Below, one piece after another: positions 22,528 through 33,003 of a DNA stretch of 64,000 nt. A program made the translations under genes and the position numbers. Below the pieces are notes generated by a model, which had not been told where the DNA came from, searched no databases, and saw only the letters and a program-made list of their open reading frames with translations. Source of the DNA: Escherichia phage FL33; the sequence record PP400788. One strand, written 5' to 3'. Numbering within the stretch: position 1 is the stretch's first letter; each line of letters opens with the position of its first letter.

Positions 22528-25500
22528 ATGGCCGAGATTAAAAGAAAGTTCAGAGCAGAAGATGGTCTGGACGCAGGTGGTGATAAAATAATCAACGTAG
22601 CTTTAGCTGATCGTACCGTAGGAACTGACGGTGTTAACGTTGATTACTTAATTCAAGAAAACACAGTTCAACAATATGATCCAACTCGTGGATATTTAAA
22701 AGATTTTGTAATCATTTATGATAACCGCTTTTGGGCTGCTATAAATGATATTCCAAAACCAGCAGGAGCTTTTAATAGCGTACGATGGAGAGCGTTACGT
22801 ACTGATGCAAACTGGACAACTGTTTCATCAGGACCTTATCAATTAAAGTCAGGTGAATCAATTTCAGTTGATACTGCAGCTGGTAATGACATTACATTTA
22901 CTTTACCATCTTCTCCAATTGATGGTGATACTATCGTTCTCCAAGACATTGGAGGAAAACCTGGAGTTAACCAAGTTTTAATTACAGCTCCGGTACAAAG
23001 CATTGTAAATTTTAGAGGTCAGCAAGTACGATCAGTACTAATGACTCATCCAAAATCACAGATAGTTTTAATTTTTAGTAATCGTCTGTGGCAAATGTAT
23101 GTCGCTGATTATAGTAGAGAAGCTGTAGTTGTAACGCCTGCGAGTCTCTATCAGGCGCAATCAAACGATTTTATCGTACGTAGATTTACTTCTGCTGCAC
23201 CAATTAATGTTAAACTTCCAAGATTTGCTAATCATGGCGATATTATTAATTTCGTCGATTTAGATAAACTGAATCCACTTTATCATACAATTGTTACTAC
23301 ATACGATGAAACGACTTCAGTACAAGAAGTTGGAACTCATTCCATTGAAGGCCGTACATCGATTGACGGTTTCTTGATGTTTGATGATAATGAGAAATTG
23401 TGGAGATTGTTTGACGGGGATAGTAAAGCACGTTTACGCATTATAACGACTAATTCTAATATTCGTCCAAACGAAGAAGTTATGGTATTTGGTGCGAATA
23501 ACGGAACAACTCAAACAATTGAGCTTCAGCTTCCAACTAATATTTCTGTTGGTGATACTGTTAAAATTTCCATGAATTACATGAGAAAAGGACAAACAGT
23601 TAAAATCAAAGCTGCTGGTGAAGATAAAATTGCTTCTTCAGTTCAATTGCTGCAATTCCCAAAACGTTCAGAATATCCGCCTGAAACTAAATGGGTTACA
23701 GTTCAAGAATTAGTTTTTAATGGTGAAACTAATTATGTTCCAGTTTTGCAACTTGCTTATATAGAAGATTCTGATGGAAAATATTGGGTTGTGCAACAAA
23801 ATGTTCCAACTGTAGAAAGAGTTGATTCTTTAAATGATTCTACTAGAGCAAGATTAGGCGTAATTGCTTTAGCTACACAAGCTCAAGCTAACGTCGATTT
23901 AGAAAATTCTCCACAAAAAGAATTAGCAATTACTCCAGAAACATTAGCTAACCGTACTGCTACTGAAACTCGCAGAGGTATTGCAAGAATAGCAACTACT
24001 GCTCAAGTGAATCAGAACACCACATTCTCTTTTGCTGATGATATTATCATCACTCCTAAAAAGCTGAATGAAAGAACTGCTACAGAAACTCGCAGAGGTG
24101 TCGCAGAAATTGCTACGCAGCAAGAAACTAATGCAGGTACTGATGATACAACCATCATTACTCCTAAAAAGCTTCAAGCTCGTCAAGGTTCTGAATCATT
24201 ATCTGGTATTGTAACTTTTGTATCTACTGCAGGTGCTACTCCAGCTTCTAGCCGTGAATTAAATGGTACGAATGTTTATAATAAAAACACTAATAACTTA
24301 GTTGTTTCGCCAAAAGCTTTGGATCAGTATAAAGCTACTCCAACGCAACAAGGTGCAGTAATTTTAGCAGTTGAAAGTGAAGTAATTGCTGGACAAAGCC
24401 AAGAAGGATGGGCAAATGCGGTTGTAACGCCAGAAACGTTACATAAAAAGACATCAACTGATGGAAGAATTGGTTTAATTGAAATTGCTACGCAAAGTGA
24501 AGTTAATACAGGAACTGATTATACTCGTGCAGTCACTCCTAAAACTTTAAATGACCGTAGAGCAACTGAAAGTTTAAGTGGTATAGCTGAAATTGCTACA
24601 CAAGTTGAATTCGACGCAGGCGTCGACGATACTCGTATCTCTACACCATTAAAAATTAAAACCAGATTTAATAGTACTGATCGTACTTCTGTTGTTGCTC
24701 TATCTGGATTAGTTGAATCAGGAACTCTCTGGGACCATTATACCCTTAATATTCTTGAAGCAAATGAGACACAGCGTGGTACACTTCGTGTAGCTACACA
24801 GGTTGAAGCTGCTGCAGGAACATTAGATAATGTTTTAATAACTCCTAAAAAGCTTTTAGGTACTAAATCTACCGAATCGCAAGAAGGTGTTATTAAAGTT
24901 GCAACTCAGTCTGAAACTGTGACTGGAACGTCAGCAAATACTGCTGTATCTCCAAAAAATTTAAAATGGATTGTGCAGAGTGAACCTACTTGGGCAGCTA
25001 CTACTGCAATAAGAGGTTTTGTTAAAACTTCATCTGGTTCAATTACATTCGTTGGTAATGATACAGTAGGTTCTACCCAAGATTTAGATCTATACGAGAA
25101 AAATAGCTATGCGGTATCACCATATGAATTAAACCGCGTATTAGCAAATTATCTGCCGTTAAAAGCAAAAGCTGTAGATAGTAATTTATTGGATGGTCTA
25201 GATTCATCTCAGTTCATTCGTAGGGATATTGCACAGACGGTTAATGGTTCACTAACCTTAACCCAACAAACGAATCTGAGTGCCCCTCTTGTATCATCTA
25301 GTACTGCTACGTTTGGTGGTTCAGTTTCGGCAAATAGTGTACTAACTATTTCTAATACTGGAACAGCAACTCGTCTGATTTTTGAAAAAGGACCTCAGAC
25401 TGGAACGAACCCGGCTCAAACGATGACAGTCAGCGTGTGGGGGAATCAATTTAGTGGGGAATCAAACACAACACGTTCTACCGTATTTGAAGTTAGTGAT

Positions 25501-26397
25501 GAAACATCTTATCACTTTTATTCTCAACGCGATAAAGATGGCAATATAGCATTTAGCATTAATGGTACTGTAATGCCAATAAATGTGAATGCTTTAGGTT
25601 CTTTGAACGCGAACGGCGTTGCAACATTCGGTAGTTCAGTTACTGCTAATGGCGAATTTATCAGTAAATCGTCGAATGCTTTTAGAGCAATAAACGGTGA
25701 TTATGGATTCTTTATTCGTAATGATGCTGCTAACACCTATTTTATGCTTACTGCATCTGGTGATCAGACTGGTGGATTTAATGGATTACGTCCATTATCA
25801 ATTAATAATCAATCTGGTCAGGTTACAATTGGTGAAAGCTTAATCATTGCCAAAGGCGCTACTATAACTTCAGGTGGTTTAACTGTCAACTCGAGAATTC
25901 GTTCTCAAGGTACTAAAACCTCTGATTTATATACTCGTGCGCCAACATCTGATACTGTAGGATTCTGGTCAATCGATATTAATGATTCAGCCACTTATAA
26001 CCAGTTCCCGGGTTATTTTAAGATGGTTGAAAAGACTAATGAAGTGACTGGACTTCCATACTTAGAACGTGGCGAAGAAGTTAAATCTCCTGGTACATTG
26101 ACTCAGTTTGGTAACACACTCGATTCGCTTTATCAAGATTGGATTACTTATCCAACGACCCCAGAAGCGCGCACCACTCGCTGGACGCGCACATGGCAGA
26201 AAACCAAAAACTCTTGGTCAAGTTTTGTTCAGGTATTTGATGGGGGTAACCCTCCTCAGCCGTCTGATATCGGTGCTTTACCATCTGATAATGCTATAAT
26301 GGGGAATCTTACTATTCGTGATTTCTTACGAATTGGTAATGTTCGCATTATTCCTGACCCAGTGAATAAAACGGTTAAATTTGAATGGGTTGAATAA
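22528..26397 (+). CDS. 34: gp34 long tail fibre proximal subunit
   Basis: 1289-aa ORF (same length as T4 gp34); repeated (I/V)TPKKL and ATETRRG(I/V)A(E/R)IAT motifs. Confidence 0.92.
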   Translation: MAEIKRKFRAEDGLDAGGDKIINVALADRTVGTDGVNVDYLIQENTVQQYDPTRGYLKDFVIIYDNRFWAAINDIPKPAGAFNSVRWRALRTDANWTTVSSGPYQLKSGESISVDTAAGNDITFTLPSSPIDGDTIVLQDIGGKPGVNQVLITAPVQSIVNFRGQQVRSVLMTHPKSQIVLIFSNRLWQMYVADYSREAVVVTPASLYQAQSNDFIVRRFTSAAPINVKLPRFANHGDIINFVDLDKLNPLYHTIVTTYDETTSVQEVGTHSIEGRTSIDGFLMFDDNEKLWRLFDGDSKARLRIITTNSNIRPNEEVMVFGANNGTTQTIELQLPTNISVGDTVKISMNYMRKGQTVKIKAAGEDKIASSVQLLQFPKRSEYPPETKWVTVQELVFNGETNYVPVLQLAYIEDSDGKYWVVQQNVPTVERVDSLNDSTRARLGVIALATQAQANVDLENSPQKELAITPETLANRTATETRRGIARIATTAQVNQNTTFSFADDIIITPKKLNERTATETRRGVAEIATQQETNAGTDDTTIITPKKLQARQGSESLSGIVTFVSTAGATPASSRELNGTNVYNKNTNNLVVSPKALDQYKATPTQQGAVILAVESEVIAGQSQEGWANAVVTPETLHKKTSTDGRIGLIEIATQSEVNTGTDYTRAVTPKTLNDRRATESLSGIAEIATQVEFDAGVDDTRISTPLKIKTRFNSTDRTSVVALSGLVESGTLWDHYTLNILEANETQRGTLRVATQVEAAAGTLDNVLITPKKLLGTKSTESQEGVIKVATQSETVTGTSANTAVSPKNLKWIVQSEPTWAATTAIRGFVKTSSGSITFVGNDTVGSTQDLDLYEKNSYAVSPYELNRVLANYLPLKAKAVDSNLLDGLDSSQFIRRDIAQTVNGSLTLTQQTNLSAPLVSSSTATFGGSVSANSVLTISNTGTATRLIFEKGPQTGTNPAQTMTVSVWGNQFSGESNTTRSTVFEVSDETSYHFYSQRDKDGNIAFSINGTVMPINVNALGSLNANGVATFGSSVTANGEFISKSSNAFRAINGDYGFFIRNDAANTYFMLTASGDQTGGFNGLRPLSINNQSGQVTIGESLIIAKGATITSGGLTVNSRIRSQGTKTSDLYTRAPTSDTVGFWSIDINDSATYNQFPGYFKMVEKTNEVTGLPYLERGEEVKSPGTLTQFGNTLDSLYQDWITYPTTPEARTTRWTRTWQKTKNSWSSFVQVFDGGNPPQPSDIGALPSDNAIMGNLTIRDFLRIGNVRIIPDPVNKTVKFEWVE

Positions 26398-26405
26398 GAG
26401 GTATT

Positions 26406-27521
26406 ATGGAAAAATTTATGGCAGAGTTTGGACAAGGATATGTCCAAACGCCATTTTTATCGGAAAGCAATTCAGTAAGATATAAAATAAGTATAGCGGG
26501 TTCTTGCCCGCTTTCTACCGCAGGACCATACGTTAAATTTCAAGATAATCCTGTAGGAAGTCAAACATTTAGTGCAGGTCTTCATTTAAGAGTTTTTGAC
26601 CCTTCCACGGGAGCATTGGTTGATAGTAAGTCATATGTTTTTTCTACTTCAAATGATACAACATCTGCTGCTTTTGTTAGTTTCATGAATTCTTTTTCAA
26701 GCAATAGACTTGTTGCCATATTAACTAGCGGAAAGGTTAATTTTCCTCCTGAAGTAGTATCTTGGTTAAGAACGGCAGGAACATCTGCTTTTCCATCTGA
26801 TTCTTTATTGTCAAGATTTGACGTATCATATGCTGCCTTTTACACTTCTTCTAAAAGAGCTATCGCACTAGAGCATGTTAAACTGAGTAACAGAAAAAGC
26901 ACAGATGACTATCAAACTATATTAGATGTAGTATTTGATAGTTTAGAAGATGTTGGAGCGACAGGATTTCCTAAAAGAACATATGAAAGCGTTGAGCAAT
27001 TTATGTCAGCTGTTGGTGGAACTAATAACGAAATTGCACGTCTACCTACAGCATCTGCAATAAGTAAACTCTCTGATTATAATTTAATTCCTGGAGATGT
27101 TCTTTATCTTAAAGCACAACTATATGCTGATGCTGATTTACTTGCTCTTGGAACTACAAATATATCTATCCGTTTTTATAATGCGTCGAATGGATATATT
27201 TCCTCGACACAAGCTGAGTTTACAGGACAGGCTGGATCTTGGGAATTAAAAGAAGATTATGTAGTTGTTCCTGAAAATGCAGTAGGATTTACGATATACG
27301 CACAGAGAACTGCACAAGCGGGTCAAGGCGGTATGAGAAATTTAAGCTTTTCTGAAGTGTCAAGAAATGGCGGCATTTCAAAACCTGCTGAGTTTGGCGT
27401 CAATGGTATTCGAGTTAATTATATCTGTGAATCTGCTTCACCTCCGGATATAATGGTACTTCCTACGCAAGCATCGTCTAAAACTGGTAAAGTGTTTGGA
27501 CAGGAATTTAGAGAAGTTTAA
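26406..27521 (+). CDS. 35: gp35 long tail fibre hinge (knee) protein
   Basis: 371-aa ORF immediately after 34; T4 gp35 is 372 aa. Confidence 0.85.
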   Translation: MEKFMAEFGQGYVQTPFLSESNSVRYKISIAGSCPLSTAGPYVKFQDNPVGSQTFSAGLHLRVFDPSTGALVDSKSYVFSTSNDTTSAAFVSFMNSFSSNRLVAILTSGKVNFPPEVVSWLRTAGTSAFPSDSLLSRFDVSYAAFYTSSKRAIALEHVKLSNRKSTDDYQTILDVVFDSLEDVGATGFPKRTYESVEQFMSAVGGTNNEIARLPTASAISKLSDYNLIPGDVLYLKAQLYADADLLALGTTNISIRFYNASNGYISSTQAEFTGQAGSWELKEDYVVVPENAVGFTIYAQRTAQAGQGGMRNLSFSEVSRNGGISKPAEFGVNGIRVNYICESASPPDIMVLPTQASSKTGKVFGQEFREV

Positions 27522-27583: not shown

Positions 27584-28240
27584 ATGGCTGATTTAAAAGT
27601 AGGTTCAACAACTGGAGGCTCTGTCATTTGGCATCAAGGAAATTTTCCATTGAATCCAGCCGGTGACGATGTACTCTATAAATCATTTAAAATATATTCA
27701 GAATATAATAAACCACAAGCTGCTGATAACGATTTCGTTTCTAAAGCTAATGGTGGTACATATTTAAAAAAAGTAATTTTTAATAAAGGAATGGCTGTTC
27801 CTGGTGCTGGGTCAGGTGACAACGGTATTTTTGCCGGTCCTGGTGATAATGCCACATATGATACTACAAATATGGATATTGTTTCATGGTATGGTATCGG
27901 CTTTAAATCATCACAAGGGGCAGCAGGTAGAACTGTAGTAATTAACACACGAAACGGAGATATTAGCTCAAAGGGTGTAATTGAAGCATCACAAATACGC
28001 GCAACTTCGTTATCACCAGTAAATAATTATGACCTTACGAGGAAAGATTATGTTGATGGAGCAATAAATATTGTTACAGCAAACGCAAACTCTAGGGTAT
28101 TACGCTCTGGAGACACTATGATAGGAAATTTAACTGCGCCAAACCTTTTTTCACAGAATCCTGCATCTCAACCCTCGCATGTTCCACGATTTGACCAAAT
28201 TGTTATTAAGGATTCTGTTCAAGATTTCGGCTATTATTAA
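27584..28240 (+). CDS. 36: gp36 long tail fibre distal connector
   Basis: 218-aa ORF; T4 gp36 is 221 aa. Confidence 0.85.
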   Translation: MADLKVGSTTGGSVIWHQGNFPLNPAGDDVLYKSFKIYSEYNKPQAADNDFVSKANGGTYLKKVIFNKGMAVPGAGSGDNGIFAGPGDNATYDTTNMDIVSWYGIGFKSSQGAAGRTVVINTRNGDISSKGVIEASQIRATSLSPVNNYDLTRKDYVDGAINIVTANANSRVLRSGDTMIGNLTAPNLFSQNPASQPSHVPRFDQIVIKDSVQDFGYY

Positions 28241-28248
28241 GAGGACTT

Positions 28249-31200
28249 ATGGCTACTTTAAAACAAATACAATTTAAAAGAAGCAAAACTGCAGGAGCAC
28301 GTCCTGCCGCTTCAGTATTAGCCGAAGGTGAATTGGCTATAAACTTAAAAGACCGTGTACTTTTTACTAAAGATGACCAAGGAAATATTATTGATCTGGG
28401 TTTTGCTAAAGGCGGTAGTATTGACGGGAATGTTATTCATACAGGCAATTATAACCAAACTGGCGATTATACTTTAAACGGTACATTCACCCAGACTGGT
28501 AATTTTAATTTAATCGGTATTGCTCGAGTAACTCGTGATATTATTGCTGCTGGGCAGATTATGACTGAAGGCGGAGAACTTATTACAAAAAGTTCAGGAA
28601 CGGCACACGTTCGTTTTCATGATTCCGCCGACCGTGAACGCGGTATTATTTTTTCTCCTGCTAATGACGGTTTAACTACACAAGTAATTAACATCAGAGT
28701 TCAAGATTACAAAGCCGGTTCAGAAAGCACTTTCGCTTTTAATGGAAATGGTTTGTTTTCTTCACCAGAAGTTTTTGGGTGGAAATCTGTATCAACTCCG
28801 GTAATTTATACCAATAAAGTTATCACCAATAAAAAAGTTAAAGATGATTATGACATCTATTCGATGGCAGACAATGTTCCATTGTCTGAAAGCACTACTG
28901 CTATTAATCATCTTCGTGTCATGCGTAATGCCGTTGGTTCTGGTATTTTCCATGAAGTTAAAGATAATGATGGAATAACTTGGTATGCAGGTGATGGACT
29001 TGACACCTATCTTTGGTCATTTACTTGGAGCGGCGGAATTAAATCAAGTCACTCAATTTCTATTGGTTTAACACCTGGTAATAAAGATTATTCAATATTA
29101 GGACCATCTAGTATTGCTTTAGGAGATAATGATACTGGATTTAAATGGCATCAAGATGGATATTATTTTAGCGTTAATAATGGAACAAAAACGTTTTTAT
29201 TTAGTCCTAGCGAAACAACTAGCCTAAGAAAATTTGTAGCTGGATATTCTACTAACGGAACCGATTTAACTACTCCTCCAACTGAAAACTATGCTCTCGC
29301 TACTGTCGTGACATATCACGATAATAACGCGTTTGGAGATGGTCAGACTCTTTTAGGATATTATCAAGGCGGTAACTATCATCATTATTTCCGCGGCAAG
29401 GGTACCACAAACATTAATACTCACGGCGGTTTGTTAGTTACTCCTGGTAATATTGACGTTATTGGTGGTTCTGTTAATATCGATGGTAGAAATAATGCTT
29501 CTACACTGATGTTTAGAGGTAACACAACTGGTAGTAGTTCAGTTGATAATATGACAATTTCCGTGTGGGGTAATACATTTACTATTCCTAGTGAAGGTAA
29601 TCGCAAAAATGTCATGGAAATTTCTGATGCAACTAGTTGGATGAGCTATATTCAAAGACTTACAACAGGTGAAGTAGAAATGAACGTTAACGGTTCATTT
29701 GAATCATCTGGTGTTACTGCTGGACATAGAGGAGTTCACACAACAGGTGAAATTTCATCTGGAGCAGTGAATGCGCTTCGCATTTGGAATGCAGATTATG
29801 GAGCCATTTTTAGACGTTCAGAAGGAAGTCTTCATATTATTCCGACTGCTTATGGTGAAGGCAAAAATGGTGATATCGGTCCACTTCGCCCGTTTAGTAT
29901 GGCTTTAGATACCGGTAAAGTTACTATTCCAGATTTACAATCAAGTTACAATACGTTCGCTGCGAACGGCTATATTAAATTTGTTGGTCATGGCGCTGGC
30001 GCTGGTGGTTATGACATTCAATATGTTCAAGCGGCTCCTATTTTTCAGGAAATCGATGATGATGCTGTAAGCAAATATTATCCTATTGTTAAACAGAAGT
30101 TTCTAAACGGTAAATCCGTTTGGTCTTTAGGTACTGAAATTAATTCAGGTACATTCGTGATACACCATATCAAAGAAGATGGAACACAGGGCCATGCATC
30201 AAGATTTAATGCTGATGGTACAGTTAACTTCCCGGATAACGTTCTGGTCGGCGGTGATATTAACATGAAAGGCTTGATGACTTTTGACGCCGGACGTTTA
30301 GGATCACGAGATTATTTTAAATTTAACCATTGGGGTGATAGCAATAACGCTCGTGATAACATCATCCAGTTAGAAGATAGTCAAGGCGCCCATTTTTCCA
30401 CTGAACGTACTTTAGCGACAGGTGCAATTAAAACTCGTTTCTTTGGCGAAACATTCACTGATGGTACATTATACCTAAATCAGATGCATAATAGCTCTGA
30501 ACGATTCTCTATCAGCAATTGGGGAAATTCAGAAGTTGGACGCGCGGCAGTATTGGAAGTCGGCGATTCAAAAGGTTATCACTTCTATGCTGAACGCAGG
30601 ACAGATAACAGTTTGATGTTTGATGTTGCTGGTTCTTTGACCGTACATGGACCTAGCGGAATAACCATCAAAAACTCAACTGGTGCTCGCCATATCTGGT
30701 TTAGAGATGATAGCGATGCAGAAAAGGCTGTTATCTGGGCTACAGATGAGGGTATTTTACATATACGAAATAATCATGGGGGTTCATTTAGTCATCACTT
30801 CCAGGGTGCAATGATTAAAGCGGGAGAGCAAGTTCCTTATAATAGTGAATACGCTCTTATCCGTGGTGATGTTTTTGGTGGTGCTTGGGATGACTGGCGC
30901 AACCGTCCTGCTGGTATTCTCTTAGATTGTCAGGATTCACATACCCGAGCATATTCAATTTGGAAAGCAACTCATTGGGGTGTTGATCATCTTGCGGCAA
31001 TGGGTGTTCATGCTGGCGGTGGTCAAGCTACCGTAATGATGCATATGAACAAAGGCGGCTGGTATTCATGGGCTGCAAATGGTGATTTCACATCTAGTGC
31101 GTCGGTTTACTGTAACGATGTTTATATTCGTTCCGACCGTCGTCTGAAAATTAACGTTGAAGACTACGAAGAAAATGCGGTAGATAAGGTAAATAAACTA

Positions 31201-31485
31201 AAAGTTAAAACCTACGATAAAGTTAAGTCTCTTTCTGACCGAGAAGTCATCGCACATGAGATTGGTATTATCGCGCAGGATTTACAAGAAATTTTACCGG
31301 AAGCTGTTAGCACTTCTAATGTCGGATCTCTTGATAACCCAGAAGAGATTTTAACAATTTCTAACTCTACAGTGAATGCTCTTTTAATTAAGGCTATTCA
31401 GGAAATGAGTGAAGAAATTAAAGAATTGAAAACGCCTCTCTTTACTAAAATTGCTCGCAAAATTAGTAAATATTTTAAATTCTAA
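28249..31485 (+). CDS. 37: gp37 long tail fibre distal subunit, T2-type with C-terminal intramolecular chaperone domain
   Basis: 1078-aa ORF; conserved N-terminus MATLKQIQFKRSKTAGARPAASVLAEGELAINLKDR; C-terminal about 117 aa (from SDRRLKINVEDYEEN... with EIGIIAQDLQEILPEAV) resemble peptidase S74 auto-cleaving chaperone domains. Confidence 0.88.
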   Translation: MATLKQIQFKRSKTAGARPAASVLAEGELAINLKDRVLFTKDDQGNIIDLGFAKGGSIDGNVIHTGNYNQTGDYTLNGTFTQTGNFNLIGIARVTRDIIAAGQIMTEGGELITKSSGTAHVRFHDSADRERGIIFSPANDGLTTQVINIRVQDYKAGSESTFAFNGNGLFSSPEVFGWKSVSTPVIYTNKVITNKKVKDDYDIYSMADNVPLSESTTAINHLRVMRNAVGSGIFHEVKDNDGITWYAGDGLDTYLWSFTWSGGIKSSHSISIGLTPGNKDYSILGPSSIALGDNDTGFKWHQDGYYFSVNNGTKTFLFSPSETTSLRKFVAGYSTNGTDLTTPPTENYALATVVTYHDNNAFGDGQTLLGYYQGGNYHHYFRGKGTTNINTHGGLLVTPGNIDVIGGSVNIDGRNNASTLMFRGNTTGSSSVDNMTISVWGNTFTIPSEGNRKNVMEISDATSWMSYIQRLTTGEVEMNVNGSFESSGVTAGHRGVHTTGEISSGAVNALRIWNADYGAIFRRSEGSLHIIPTAYGEGKNGDIGPLRPFSMALDTGKVTIPDLQSSYNTFAANGYIKFVGHGAGAGGYDIQYVQAAPIFQEIDDDAVSKYYPIVKQKFLNGKSVWSLGTEINSGTFVIHHIKEDGTQGHASRFNADGTVNFPDNVLVGGDINMKGLMTFDAGRLGSRDYFKFNHWGDSNNARDNIIQLEDSQGAHFSTERTLATGAIKTRFFGETFTDGTLYLNQMHNSSERFSISNWGNSEVGRAAVLEVGDSKGYHFYAERRTDNSLMFDVAGSLTVHGPSGITIKNSTGARHIWFRDDSDAEKAVIWATDEGILHIRNNHGGSFSHHFQGAMIKAGEQVPYNSEYALIRGDVFGGAWDDWRNRPAGILLDCQDSHTRAYSIWKATHWGVDHLAAMGVHAGGGQATVMMHMNKGGWYSWAANGDFTSSASVYCNDVYIRSDRRLKINVEDYEENAVDKVNKLKVKTYDKVKSLSDREVIAHEIGIIAQDLQEILPEAVSTSNVGSLDNPEEILTISNSTVNALLIKAIQEMSEEIKELKTPLFTKIARKISKYFKF

Positions 31486-31491
31486 CAACAA

Positions 31492-31512
31492 GGGGGAAAT
31501 GCCCCCTTTGGA
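31492..31512 (+). terminator. stem-loop (possible attenuating hairpin) between 37 and 38
   Basis: AGGGGGAAAUGCCCCCUUU; short U-run only. Confidence 0.4.
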
Positions 31513-31521
31513 GTATAAATT

Positions 31522-32301
31522 ATGGCAGTAGTTGGAGTTCCTGGCTGGATTGGAAGTTCAGCCGTAAATGAAACGGGTCAGCGCTGGATGAGTCAAGCAG
31601 CTGGTCAATTAAGATTGGGTGTTCCTTGCTGGATGAGTCAATTTGCAGGTCGCTCAAGAGAAATTATTCATACACTTGGAGCAGACCATAACTTCAATGG
31701 TCAATGGTTCCGAGATAGATGTTTTGAGGCAGGTAGTGCACCTATAGTGTTTAATATCACTGGAGAATTAGTATCATATTCTAAAGATGTTCCTTTATTC
31801 TTTATGTATGGAGATACCCCTAACGAATATGTTACTTTGAATATTCATGGTGGTGTTCATATGTGGGGCCGAGGTGGTAACGGTACTGTAAACGGAAACC
31901 CAGGCACAAATGGTGGCGATGTAATCCAAAATGATATCGGCGGAAGACTTCGTATTTGGAACTATGGCGTTATTGCATCAGGCGGCGGCGGCGGTGGTGC
32001 AGTGTCATTACAGAATAGCTGGGCGCCAAATGCTACAGCAGGTGGCGGTGGCGGCAGACCATTTGGCCTCGGCGGCGGTGGCGTTAATTGGCCTGGCGGT
32101 AATGCTAGTTTGACGTCTCCGGGCAGTGCCGGTTACACTTCCCAATTCGGCGGAGGCAATGGCGGTGATGCTGGAGGTCGGGGCGGAGATGGATGGGGTA
32201 ATCACTTATCTAGATCTGGCGGTGGTGCTCCTGGCAGAGCAGTATTCGGTTCTTCACCATCATGGGGCGCTACAGGCACGATCTACGGCTCCTGGATTTA
32301 A
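31522..32301 (+). CDS. 38: gp38 receptor-recognising adhesin, T2-type (glycine-rich motifs)
   Basis: 259-aa ORF; conserved N-terminal block, then four Gly-rich motifs ([44 protein letters not shown]) separated by variable segments; T4 gp38 is a 183-aa chaperone instead. Confidence 0.85.
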
Positions 32302-32319
32302 ACGATAATACCTCTCAGT

Positions 32320-32327
32320 TATAAATA
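32320..32327 (+). promoter_or_regulatory. late promoter TATAAATA for holin gene t
   Basis: Exact TATAAATA 20 nt upstream of t ATG. Confidence 0.7.
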
Positions 32328-32346
32328 TTGATAAATTGGAGGTAAT

Positions 32347-33003
32347 ATGGCAGCACCTAGAATATCATTTTCGCCCTCTGGTATTCTGTTTGGTGTTCTA
32401 GATCGCTTGTTCAAAGATAACGCTACCGGGAAAGTTCTTGCTTCCCGAGTAGCTGTCGTAATTCTTTTATTTATGATGGCGATTGTTTGGTATAGGGGAG
32501 ATAGTTTCTTTGAGTACTATAAGCAATCAAAGTATGAAACATACAGTGAAATTATTGAAAAGGAAAGAAATGCACGCTTTGAATCTGTCGCCCTGGAACA
32601 ACTCCAGATAGTTCACATATCATCTGAGGCAGACTTTAGTGCGGTGTATTCTTTCCGCCCTAAAAACTTAAACTATTTTGTTGATATTATAGCATATGAA
32701 GGAAAATTACCTTCAACAATAAGCGAAAAATCACTTGGAGGATATCCTGTTGATAAAACTATGGATGAATATACAGTTCATTTAAATGGACGTCATTATT
32801 ATTCCAACTCAAAATTTGCTTTTTTACCAACTAAAAAGCCTACTCCCGAAATAAACTACATGTACAGTTGTCCATATTTCAATTTGGATAATATCTATGC
32901 TGGAACAATAACCATGTACTGGTATAGAAATGATCATATAAGTAATGACCGCCTTGAATCAATATGTTCTCAGGCGGCCAGAATATTAGGAAGGGCTAAA
33001 TAA
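32347..33003 (+). CDS. t: holin T
   Basis: 218-aa ORF MAAPRISFSPSGILFGVLDRLFKDNATGKVLASRVAVVILLFMMAIVWY... with single transmembrane helix and large periplasmic domain; T4 T is 218 aa. Confidence 0.92.
   Translation: MAAPRISFSPSGILFGVLDRLFKDNATGKVLASRVAVVILLFMMAIVWYRGDSFFEYYKQSKYETYSEIIEKERNARFESVALEQLQIVHISSEADFSAVYSFRPKNLNYFVDIIAYEGKLPSTISEKSLGGYPVDKTMDEYTVHLNGRHYYSNSKFAFLPTKKPTPEINYMYSCPYFNLDNIYAGTITMYWYRNDHISNDRLESICSQAARILGRAK

Follow-up and report, generated by a model that had tools for sequence, protein, structure and literature searches.

The long-tail-fibre tip of Escherichia phage FL33: a probable T2/S16-type module of self-cleaved gp37 and OmpF-directed gp38

Processing of the T2 tail-fibre protein gp37 has been known since 1986 and the structure of the S16 fibre tip since 2018. 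According to Drexler (1986), as cited in PMC3157838, gp37 of T2 and T6 is proteolytically processed and then capped by gp38. Autoproteolytic release has been shown for the gp37 proteins of T2 and S16 and for T5 pb1, endoNF and MyRF. In S16 the gp37 tip has pockets that receive the tryptophans of gp38 (PMC6851490), and the solved gp38 structures contain ten polyglycine-II (PGII) helices and five distal loops, with a family plan described in the literature as five glycine-rich motifs (GRMs) and four hypervariable segments (HVSs; PMC3157838; PMC12032242). In relatives the receptor changes when gp38 is exchanged or when a single one of its residues is altered.

The locus considered here lies in a 64,000-nucleotide stretch from Escherichia phage FL33 (PP400788), referred to below as the window. 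What it encodes is an ordinary receptor-binding tip of the familiar T2/S16 type of T-even phages; earlier publications already cover its architecture, its self-cleaving chaperone, the way gp38 docks and the receptor that the phage uses, and none of this is new here. The present analysis contributes the domain identities, the conservation of the catalytic dyad, the fold match and the sequence identity of the distal loops with those of relatives, and draws on the literature for OmpF dependence, for the Trp-prong mode of docking and for cleavage in T2, S16, T5 and MyRF. Its value is that of annotation: it assigns the host-range determinant to loops A-E of gp38, in which Q208 occupies a position known to switch between OmpF and OmpW, and opens no new question.

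Gene order and intergenic elements

Both open reading frames of the first-pass annotation were recovered at their original coordinates on the plus strand. Gene 37 (28249..31485) encodes 1078 aa plus stop, the precursor of the long tail fibre distal subunit, and matches PHROG 1699, 'long tail fiber protein distal subunit', over its full length with 1325.7 bits. Gene 38 (31522..32301) encodes a monomeric tail-fibre tip adhesin of 259 aa plus stop and matches PHROG 2056, 'tail fiber protein; host specificity'. Preceded by gp34 (22528-26397), gp35 (26406-27521) and gp36 (27584-28240) and followed by holin t (32347-33003), the two genes complete the canonical order gp34-35-36-37-38-t of the T-even long-tail-fibre cluster, in which gene 38 lies directly downstream of gene 37 and upstream of t, the position of an adhesin-type gene.

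A GC-rich RNA stem-loop (31490..31508, plus strand; MFE -14.7 kcal/mol, z=-3.3) separates the gene 37 stop from the Shine-Dalgarno sequence of gene 38, GGAG at 31510-31513. A hairpin occupies the same place in T2, fPS-2, RB69, Bas47, Bas35, AR1 and STP4-a, five times with a UUCG loop. The 37-38 spacers were folded one sequence at a time, because MAFFT/RNAalifold misaligned the stems and gave too low a count of covarying pairs. A terminator scan flagged the hairpin on the minus strand only, so that it is not a canonical plus-strand terminator, and a scan for sigma-70 promoters gave no enrichment (19 found against 17.1 expected). Outside the tail-fibre tip proper, and as context for it, TATAAATA at 32320..32327 (plus strand), upstream of holin gene t, reads as a match to the T4-type late-promoter consensus; the fPS-2 record likewise has a late promoter predicted between g38 and t.

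The gp37 shaft, its chaperone domain and the predicted cleavage site

The shaft of gp37 is a mosaic in which residues 1-650 are 90-100% identical to RB69/fPS-2, residues 650-950 resemble Bas46 only, and residues 448-550 match Pfam Gp34_trimer. The extreme C-terminus of this trimeric fibre protein, the last 117 of its 1078 residues, is a Peptidase_S74 intramolecular chaperone (IMC; residues 962-1078, 31132..31482, plus strand) with predicted release by autocleavage. The segment proposed at first as about 117 aa long is thus exactly that, running from S962 to F1078, with SDRRLK starting at residue 962 and its first codon at nt 31132. Residues 962-1020 cover positions 1-57 of the 58 in Pfam PF13884 (53.5 bits, where the cut-off is 22 bits; E=2.9e-14), and the first profile position falls on S962. 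The catalytic motif S962-D-R-R-L-K967 (31132..31149, plus strand; Ser codon 31132-31134, Lys codon 31147-31149) places a Ser-x4-Lys dyad at the very start of the domain, equivalent to S911/K916 of endoNF, S587/K592 of MyRF and S1264/K1269 of T5 pb1. Across an alignment of 63 sequences, S962, D963, L966 and K967 are invariant, as is a G..AQ...LPEAV motif.

Comparisons with solved structures agree. By sequence, the C-terminus of gp37 matches 6F45_A, the S16 gp37 construct in which VSSDRRIKK stands opposite IRSDRRLKI, as well as 8JOV and 7DC3, the latter being the MyRF ICA domain. An AF2 model of the C-terminal segment, built as a monomer of a domain that works as a trimer, reached a pLDDT of 82 overall and 85-95 in the chaperone, and has the IMC fold with a long terminal helix (residues 139-175 of the modelled query). 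With this model, Foldseek returned 7DC3 (E=1.2e-5, TM 0.69) and the endosialidase IMC structures 3GW6/3GUD (probability 1.00); the significant matches were IMC/ICA structures only, and the chains of T5 pb1 and S16 gp37 were not among them. Profile, invariant dyad, sequence matches and fold therefore all bear out the earlier assignment of the gp37 tail to the S74 chaperones, and the structural similarity on which that assignment had been staked is present.

The position of the cut in gp37 is expected to be R961/S962, at the junction of nt 31131 and 31132, by analogy with T5 pb1 (T1263/S1264), MyRF (P586/S587) and S16 (DLNVS/SDRRIKK), in all of which cleavage falls before the Ser. This would refine the original prediction of cleavage near nt 31132, with which the family sites agree. 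Published accounts of the scissile bond disagree, and in phi29 gp12 the Ser is modelled as the last mature residue; a cut after the conserved Ser was considered here and rejected on the T5 pb1, MyRF and S16 data. The same DVYIR/SD cut is predicted in the fPS-2 paper, and (D/N)VY(I/V)R-SDxR(L/V/A)K is common to all gp37 proteins compared, real T2 included. From the cleavage position in homologues, the mature protein would comprise residues 1-961 (28249..31131, plus strand), ending in NDVYIR, and is predicted to form the trimeric fibre shaft and the gp38 docking tip. Its expected end at R961 can serve in engineering or in predicting receptors.

It may be asked whether the domain is instead catalytically dead or retained in the virion, with gp38 attached elsewhere or not at all. 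The argument for cleavage in this phage is drawn wholly from homology, which gives such a reading its opening, but we consider it very improbable: the Ser-Lys dyad and the motif around it are strictly conserved, and the junction is shared with T2, whose gp37 has been shown to be processed, and with S16, whose IMC cleaves itself off. In T5 pb1 the receptor-binding end is masked as long as the chaperone stays uncleaved, and in FL33 an uncleaved chaperone would be expected likewise to cover the surface on which gp38 docks.

The gp38 adhesin and its receptor

The sequence of gp38 places it in the adhesin type, and not in the T4 chaperone type, as had been proposed at the outset. Pfam GP38 (PF05268) is matched over its full profile, 1-218 (E=1.8e-83, 280.1 bits), and Gp38_N (PF21721) at residues 1-42 (E=1.4e-20, 73.5 bits), each against a cut-off of 25 bits; like the PF13884 match in gp37, these scores are far above what chance would give. 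Among solved structures gp38 is homologous to PP01 gp38 (9V85, E=4.6e-76) and S16 gp38 (6F45_D, E=3.8e-48). In several database records close homologues carry the name 'distal long tail fiber assembly catalyst/chaperone', and one might accordingly picture gp38 as a T4-like assembly chaperone only, released after gp37 has folded, with the gp37 C-terminus binding the receptor. We find this reading barely credible. Such names are inherited from T4, and the entry for RB69 states that the unrelated 'gp38' of the T2 subfamily is the adhesin; the family and structure matches just given are joined by PGII motifs and Trp prongs; and at its end gp37 bears no needle tip of the T4 kind but an S74 chaperone that can be removed.

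As an adhesin, gp38 begins with an attachment domain (about residues 1-45, 31522..31656, plus strand; Gp38_N) whose three Trp prongs (W9, W22, W37) each have an aligned Trp in S16 gp38 and are conserved in eight of nine aligned adhesins. The specificity region (residues 116-243, 31867..32250, plus strand) holds the Gly-rich motifs and the distal loops A-E. Four such motifs had been counted in the first-pass annotation; the nine-sequence alignment, in keeping with the literature, gives five, as invariant Gly blocks at 116-121, 154-159, 175-182, 212-221 and 238-243. Gly makes up 37% of residues 110-240, and variation falls mostly between the blocks. By homology to 9V85 and 6F45 these motifs would form a PGII sandwich. 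The loops, mapped with the definitions of the PP01 structure, are A 122-127, B 163-172, C 185-190, D 205-209 (including Q208) and E 225-231, and the role of the variable segments as host-range determinants is backed by published mutagenesis of adhesin loops (PMC3157838 among the sources). A single protein with both S74 and GP38 domains (P0001), in which gp38(1-156) is joined to a gp37 C-terminus at a poly-Gly run, was considered as a natural fusion and set aside, being most likely a chimera of assembly or recombination.

FL33 and FL34, both Tequatrovirus, depend on OmpF (Npj Viruses 2025, PMC12032242). The comparison with FL34 (PP400789.1) is close: both flanks are 100.0% identical to the window, over 22.5 kb and 24 kb, gp37 (XAO17404.1) has 100% aa identity, and gp38 agrees fully as far as nt 32174, at about residue 217. 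The differences are confined to the last 130 nt or so of gp38, within bases 1-243 of the FL34 record, and these bases are an error-laden duplicate of its clean other end, which matches the window at 932 of 932 positions. It follows that the 259-aa gp38 of the window is correct, and that the 270-aa GenBank version is an artefact of an untrimmed terminal overlap and not a real variant.

In each of its five distal loops gp38 is identical to Bas46, fPS-2, Bas47 and RB69, and it falls by sequence in the OmpF-binding clade of RB69, RB51, Bas47 and fPS-2. Dependence on OmpF has been shown for Bas47, fPS-2 (OmpF+LPS), RB69 (OmpF+FhuA+LPS; PMC3157838) and RB51. Loop identity with these phages, together with the loss of FL34/FL33 plating on deletion of ompF (PMC12032242), supports the porin OmpF as primary receptor, the dependence itself being taken from the literature. 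A phage of the same architecture with another primary receptor (OmpW, FadL or TolC), or with OmpF plus an obligatory co-receptor, is improbable, though several observations lean that way. The change Q206L is enough to switch the RB51 adhesin from OmpF to the RB68 specificity, OmpW; FL34 drops by about one log on a tolC mutant, read by the authors as a minor role (PMC12032242); and RB69 and RB51 need FhuA and LPS core besides OmpF (PMC3157838), so that in FL33, too, OmpF is possibly not the sole requirement. Against a different receptor, the residue equivalent to RB51 Q206 is Gln (Q208), the loops are those of OmpF binders, and FL34, whose gp37 is identical and whose gp38 is identical wherever its record is reliable, is the phage that fails on the ompF deletion.

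One further observation that leans towards another receptor is a difference from the other OmpF-clade adhesins. Residues 197-202 are LTSPGS here and YDAPGG in the rest of the clade, and a patch of the LTSPGS type is also present in the OmpC binders PP01/AR1 and in T2. Against such a reading, it lies between loops C and D, outside the receptor-contacting loops as defined in PP01. That the patch is a micro-recombinant segment altering the use of OmpF alleles or of a co-receptor, for example in the small TolC effect of FL34, is a doubtful suggestion; if true, the FL34 cassette would be related to Mosigvirus fibre tips, with a functionally distinct host range.

Proposed assembly and comparison with known systems

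Taken together, the locus very probably encodes the distal end of a long tail fibre of the T2/S16 type, a tip module in which self-cleaved gp37 is capped by gp38 and OmpF is the receptor. On this model gp37 would be made as a 1078-aa precursor whose S962-F1078 segment, the chaperone, trimerises via its C-terminal coiled coil and serves as the template on which the triple beta-helical end of the fibre folds. After the trimer has folded correctly, the Ser962-Lys967 dyad would cut the chain at R961/S962, and departure of the chaperone trimer would expose a flat trimeric gp37 tip ending in DVYIR. On this tip a single gp38 monomer, a stoichiometry suggested for FL33 by its relatives, would dock, its three-helix N-terminal domain putting W9, W22 and W37 into three symmetry-related pockets. 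The remainder of gp38 is predicted to be a beta-helix with a polyglycine-II sandwich built of the Gly-rich motifs, from which the five distal loops would project and bind the host receptor, here OmpF.

Parallels with the S16 tip (PDB 6F45; Dunne et al. 2018) are extensive, and include the gp37 trimer with an autocleaved IMC, the single gp38, the three Trp prongs, the beta-helix and the PGII sandwich. S16 differs in its distal loops, in its target, which is Salmonella OmpC, and in a gp37 shaft without sequence relation, and the S16-like phage STP4-a has a gp38 with no more than about 50% identity to the one in the window. The closest solved structure is PP01 gp38 (PDB 9V85; mBio 2026, PMC12892980), which has the beta-helix and GRMs in common and an identical LTSPG segment at 197-201, whereas loops A to E are all different and PP01 binds OmpC of O157 (PMC12892980). 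The gp38 proteins of RB69, RB51, Bas47 (AlbertHofmann), Bas46 (ChristianSchoenbein) and fPS-2 are 89-98% identical with the same five loops, differing by the four substitutions at 197-202 plus E82N. In RB69 the N-terminal attachment module of gp38 is of another, K3-like, kind and the gp37 tip and IMC differ as well, and Bas46, Bas47 and RB69 are Mosigvirus whereas the backbone of the window is Tequatrovirus. T2, which uses FadL/OmpF (PMC3157838 among the sources), shares the gene order, the VYIR-SDxRLK junction, the S74 tail and the GRM/HVS plan; its gp37, however, has 1341 aa and is mostly <45% identical, and its gp38 reaches 53% identity as a whole, with 49% in the N-terminal half (143 aa). 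The 'T2-type' label first given to the locus is therefore true of architecture only, real T2 gp38 being so distant in sequence. Beyond the T-even phages, endoNF (3GW6/3GUD), the T5 pb1 IMC (4UW8) and the MyRF ICA (7DC3) have in common with gp37 the Pfam family, the Ser-x4-Lys dyad, the fold with its terminal coiled-coil helix and the location at the C-terminus of a trimeric beta-helix, at a low sequence identity of 9-22%. With 117 aa the gp37 chaperone is nearer in size to the MyRF ICA than to the endoNF chains (252-257 residues), which are also its poorer match in the fold search.

Organization of the fibre-tip locus

The window is a segment of a T-even phage genome in which gp37, the precursor of the long tail fibre distal subunit, and gp38, the tail-fibre tip adhesin, lie within a canonical + strand cluster of long-tail-fibre genes. 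The order is gp34 (22528-26397), the proximal hinge connector gp35 (26406-27521), gp36 (27584-28240), gp37 (28249-31485, 1078 aa), gp38 (31522-32301, 259 aa) and holin t (32347-33003), followed by asiA and motA on the - strand, and the gp37 and gp38 coordinates agree exactly with those of the first-pass annotation. Within gp35, a Pfam ILEI ('interleukin-like EMT inducer') match at residues 58-127 (31.1 bits against a gathering score of 27, E=3.5e-7) points to an unexpected fold relationship.

The g37 and g38 genes share one reading frame, with two in-frame TAA stops between them. A GC-rich RNA hairpin at 31490-31508 (-14.7 kcal/mol, z=-3.3) lies downstream of the g37 stop codon and upstream of the g38 Shine-Dalgarno sequence, and a hairpin occupies the equivalent position in all eight T-even relatives checked, with variable stem sequences and a UUCG tetraloop in five. 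Similar stable CUUCGG hairpins have been described between T4 cistrons; candidate roles of the one here are mRNA stability and translational decoupling. The g38-t spacer carries the T4 late-promoter consensus TATAAATA at 32320-32327, and a predicted late promoter is annotated in the corresponding intergenic region of the fPS-2 record.

The C-terminal chaperone of gp37 and its predicted release

It is clear that gp37 ends in an intramolecular chaperone. The final 117 aa (S962-F1078) open with SDRRLK, the Ser962 codon starting at nt 31132, as had been read from the sequence at first pass. Peptidase_S74 ('chaperone of endosialidase', PF13884) matches residues 962-1020 with Ser962 at profile position 1 (E=2.9e-14, 53.5 bits; Pfam cut-off 22 bits), and when residues 901-1078 were searched against 5.8 billion proteins, nearly all of the 143 hits contained PF13884. 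All 63 sequences of an alignment have S962, D963, L966 and K967, and the G..AQ...LPEAV motif remarked upon at first pass is almost fully conserved. The catalytic dyad of the S74 family is Ser-x4-Lys, exemplified by S911/K916 in endoNF, S587/K592 in MyRF and S1264/K1269 in T5 pb1. An AlphaFold2 model built from the same alignment has chaperone pLDDT values of 85-95 and a long helix at the end. Structural similarity to S74 chaperones, the lack of which had been named as contrary evidence, is thus present, since a Foldseek comparison with the PDB finds only two domains at significance: the ICA domain of MyRF (7DC3, E=1.2e-5, TM 0.69) and the intramolecular chaperone of endosialidase (3GW6/3GUD, probability 1.00). 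Profile match, invariant Ser/Lys dyad and fold all bear out the proposed resemblance.

For three systems, structures and mass spectrometry place the cut N-terminal to the catalytic Ser. In T5 pb1 the mature protein ends at Thr1263 and Ser1264 departs with the chaperone; MyRF is cut at P586|S587, and S16 gp37 at DLNVS|SDRRIKK. The only exception, phi29 gp12, was modelled otherwise, from weak density. Because these homologues cut before the catalytic Ser, gp37 would be expected to be cleaved at R961|S962 (nt 31131|31132), releasing 117 aa. A (D/N)VY(I/V)R-SDxR(L/V/A)K junction is common to all gp37 proteins compared (T2 itself, RB69, Bas46, fPS-2 and STP4-a), and cleavage after DVYIR was already predicted in the fPS-2 paper. 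According to PMC3157838, which cites Drexler et al. for the demonstration of T2 gp37 processing in 1986, T2 and T6 gp37 undergoes cleavage before gp38 caps it.

The gp38 adhesin and its receptor

Pfam assigns gp38 to GP38 (E=1.8e-83 over the full profile) and Gp38_N (E=1.4e-20), and two adhesins of known structure are homologues, PP01 gp38 (9V85, E=4.6e-76) and S16 gp38 (6F45_D, E=3.8e-48). W9, W22 and W37 line up with the three S16 gp38 tryptophans that enter pockets on the gp37 trimer tip (PMC6851490). The first-pass annotation counted four Gly-rich motifs, one too few: an alignment of nine adhesins has five invariant Gly blocks (116-121, 154-159, 175-182, 212-221 and 238-243) separated by variable segments, fitting the plan of five Gly-rich motifs and four hypervariable segments of Trojet et al. 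(PMC3157838), which crystal structures resolve as ten polyglycine-II (PGII) helices and five distal loops (PMC6851490, PMC12892980).

The closest relatives of gp38 are those of ESh27 and Bas46 (98.1%), fPS-2 (97.3%), Bas47 (93.0%), RB51/RB68 (90.0%) and RB69 (88.8%). When the PP01 definitions (PMC12892980) are transferred onto the alignment, the window shares every residue of distal loops A (122-127), B (163-172), C (185-190), D (205-209) and E (225-231) with Bas46, fPS-2, Bas47 and RB69, save for one loop D position that the fPS-2 record gives as an ambiguous X; Tsx, OmpC, T2 and S16-like adhesins have different loops. OmpF is required by Bas47, OmpF and LPS by fPS-2, and OmpF, FhuA and LPS core by RB69 and RB51 (PMC3157838); Q206L alone redirects RB51 to OmpW, and the residue at the corresponding position here is Gln208. 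At residues 197-202 (nt 32110-32127), between loops C and D, gp38 has LTSPGS where every other OmpF-clade adhesin compared has YDAPGG; this patch matches the PP01/AR1 (OmpC) segment, and T2 in part, and looks like a micro-recombination tract.

The OmpF receptor is measured, more than predicted, because the window matches FL34 (PP400789.1) at 100.0% identity across both flanks (1-22500 and 33004-57000), the gp37 proteins are identical, and the published Tequatrovirus isolates FL34 and FL33, 99.95% twins, lose plating when ompF is deleted, tolC having a minor effect (PMC12032242). All 83 differences from FL34 fall past nt 32174, within bases 1-243 of its record. Comparison of window 32148-32390 with bases 1-243 and 166989-167231 shows the first ~243 bases to be a G-biased copy, riddled with indels, of the clean sequence at the opposite end of the record, and that clean sequence matches the window at 932/932 positions. 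The FL34 record thus retains an untrimmed terminal overlap; since the duplicate is corrupt and the clean end agrees with the window, the C-terminal ~42 aa of the annotated 270-aa FL34 gp38 (XAO17403.1) are false and the 259-aa form is correct.

Assembly, mosaicism and relation to known fibre tips

In the proposed sequence of events, the chaperone would help the gp37 precursor to trimerise, correct folding would position the Ser962-Lys967 dyad for the cut, the chaperone trimer would depart, and one gp38 would dock via its three Trp prongs, leaving the distal loops of its PGII sandwich to bind OmpF. The domain assignments, conserved dyad, fold and matching loops come from the present analysis, and the OmpF requirement, the manner of docking and the cleavage of homologues from published work; for this phage the precise bond cut and the number of gp38 copies per tip are deduced. 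The initial observation is confirmed and its interpretation supported with minor corrections; the fibre-tip feature was already known and the phage already published.

A 303-aa database protein (P0001) on a 25.7-kb contig of an E. coli assembly has gp38 1-156 fused, precisely at the poly-Gly run, to a gp37 C-terminal segment and S74 chaperone. It is probably a chimera produced at the shared GGN repeats by assembly or recombination.

gp37 is a mosaic. Over residues 1-650, a stretch that includes a Gp34_trimer module (448-550, Pfam) also found in gp34, identity to RB69 and fPS-2 is 90-100%; the distal shaft (650-950) is similar to Bas46-type fibres only, with 14-28% identity to RB69 and fPS-2; and chaperone identity is 98-100% to Bas46, 58-92% to fPS-2 and ~30% to RB69. 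In gp38, 23 of the 29 differences from RB69 lie in residues 4-48, nearly all thus in the attachment domain. This pattern illustrates a rule already in the literature (PMC3157838): the tip of gp37 and the N-terminal domain of gp38 vary together as a single module, and the specificity domain moves separately. Mosigvirus (Bas46, Bas47, RB69) and Tequatrovirus (FL34, fPS-2) phages alike carry the OmpF module. The original 'T2-type' label holds for architecture but not for sequence, since identity to the gp38 of T2 itself is 53% overall, and 49% in the N-terminal 143 aa.
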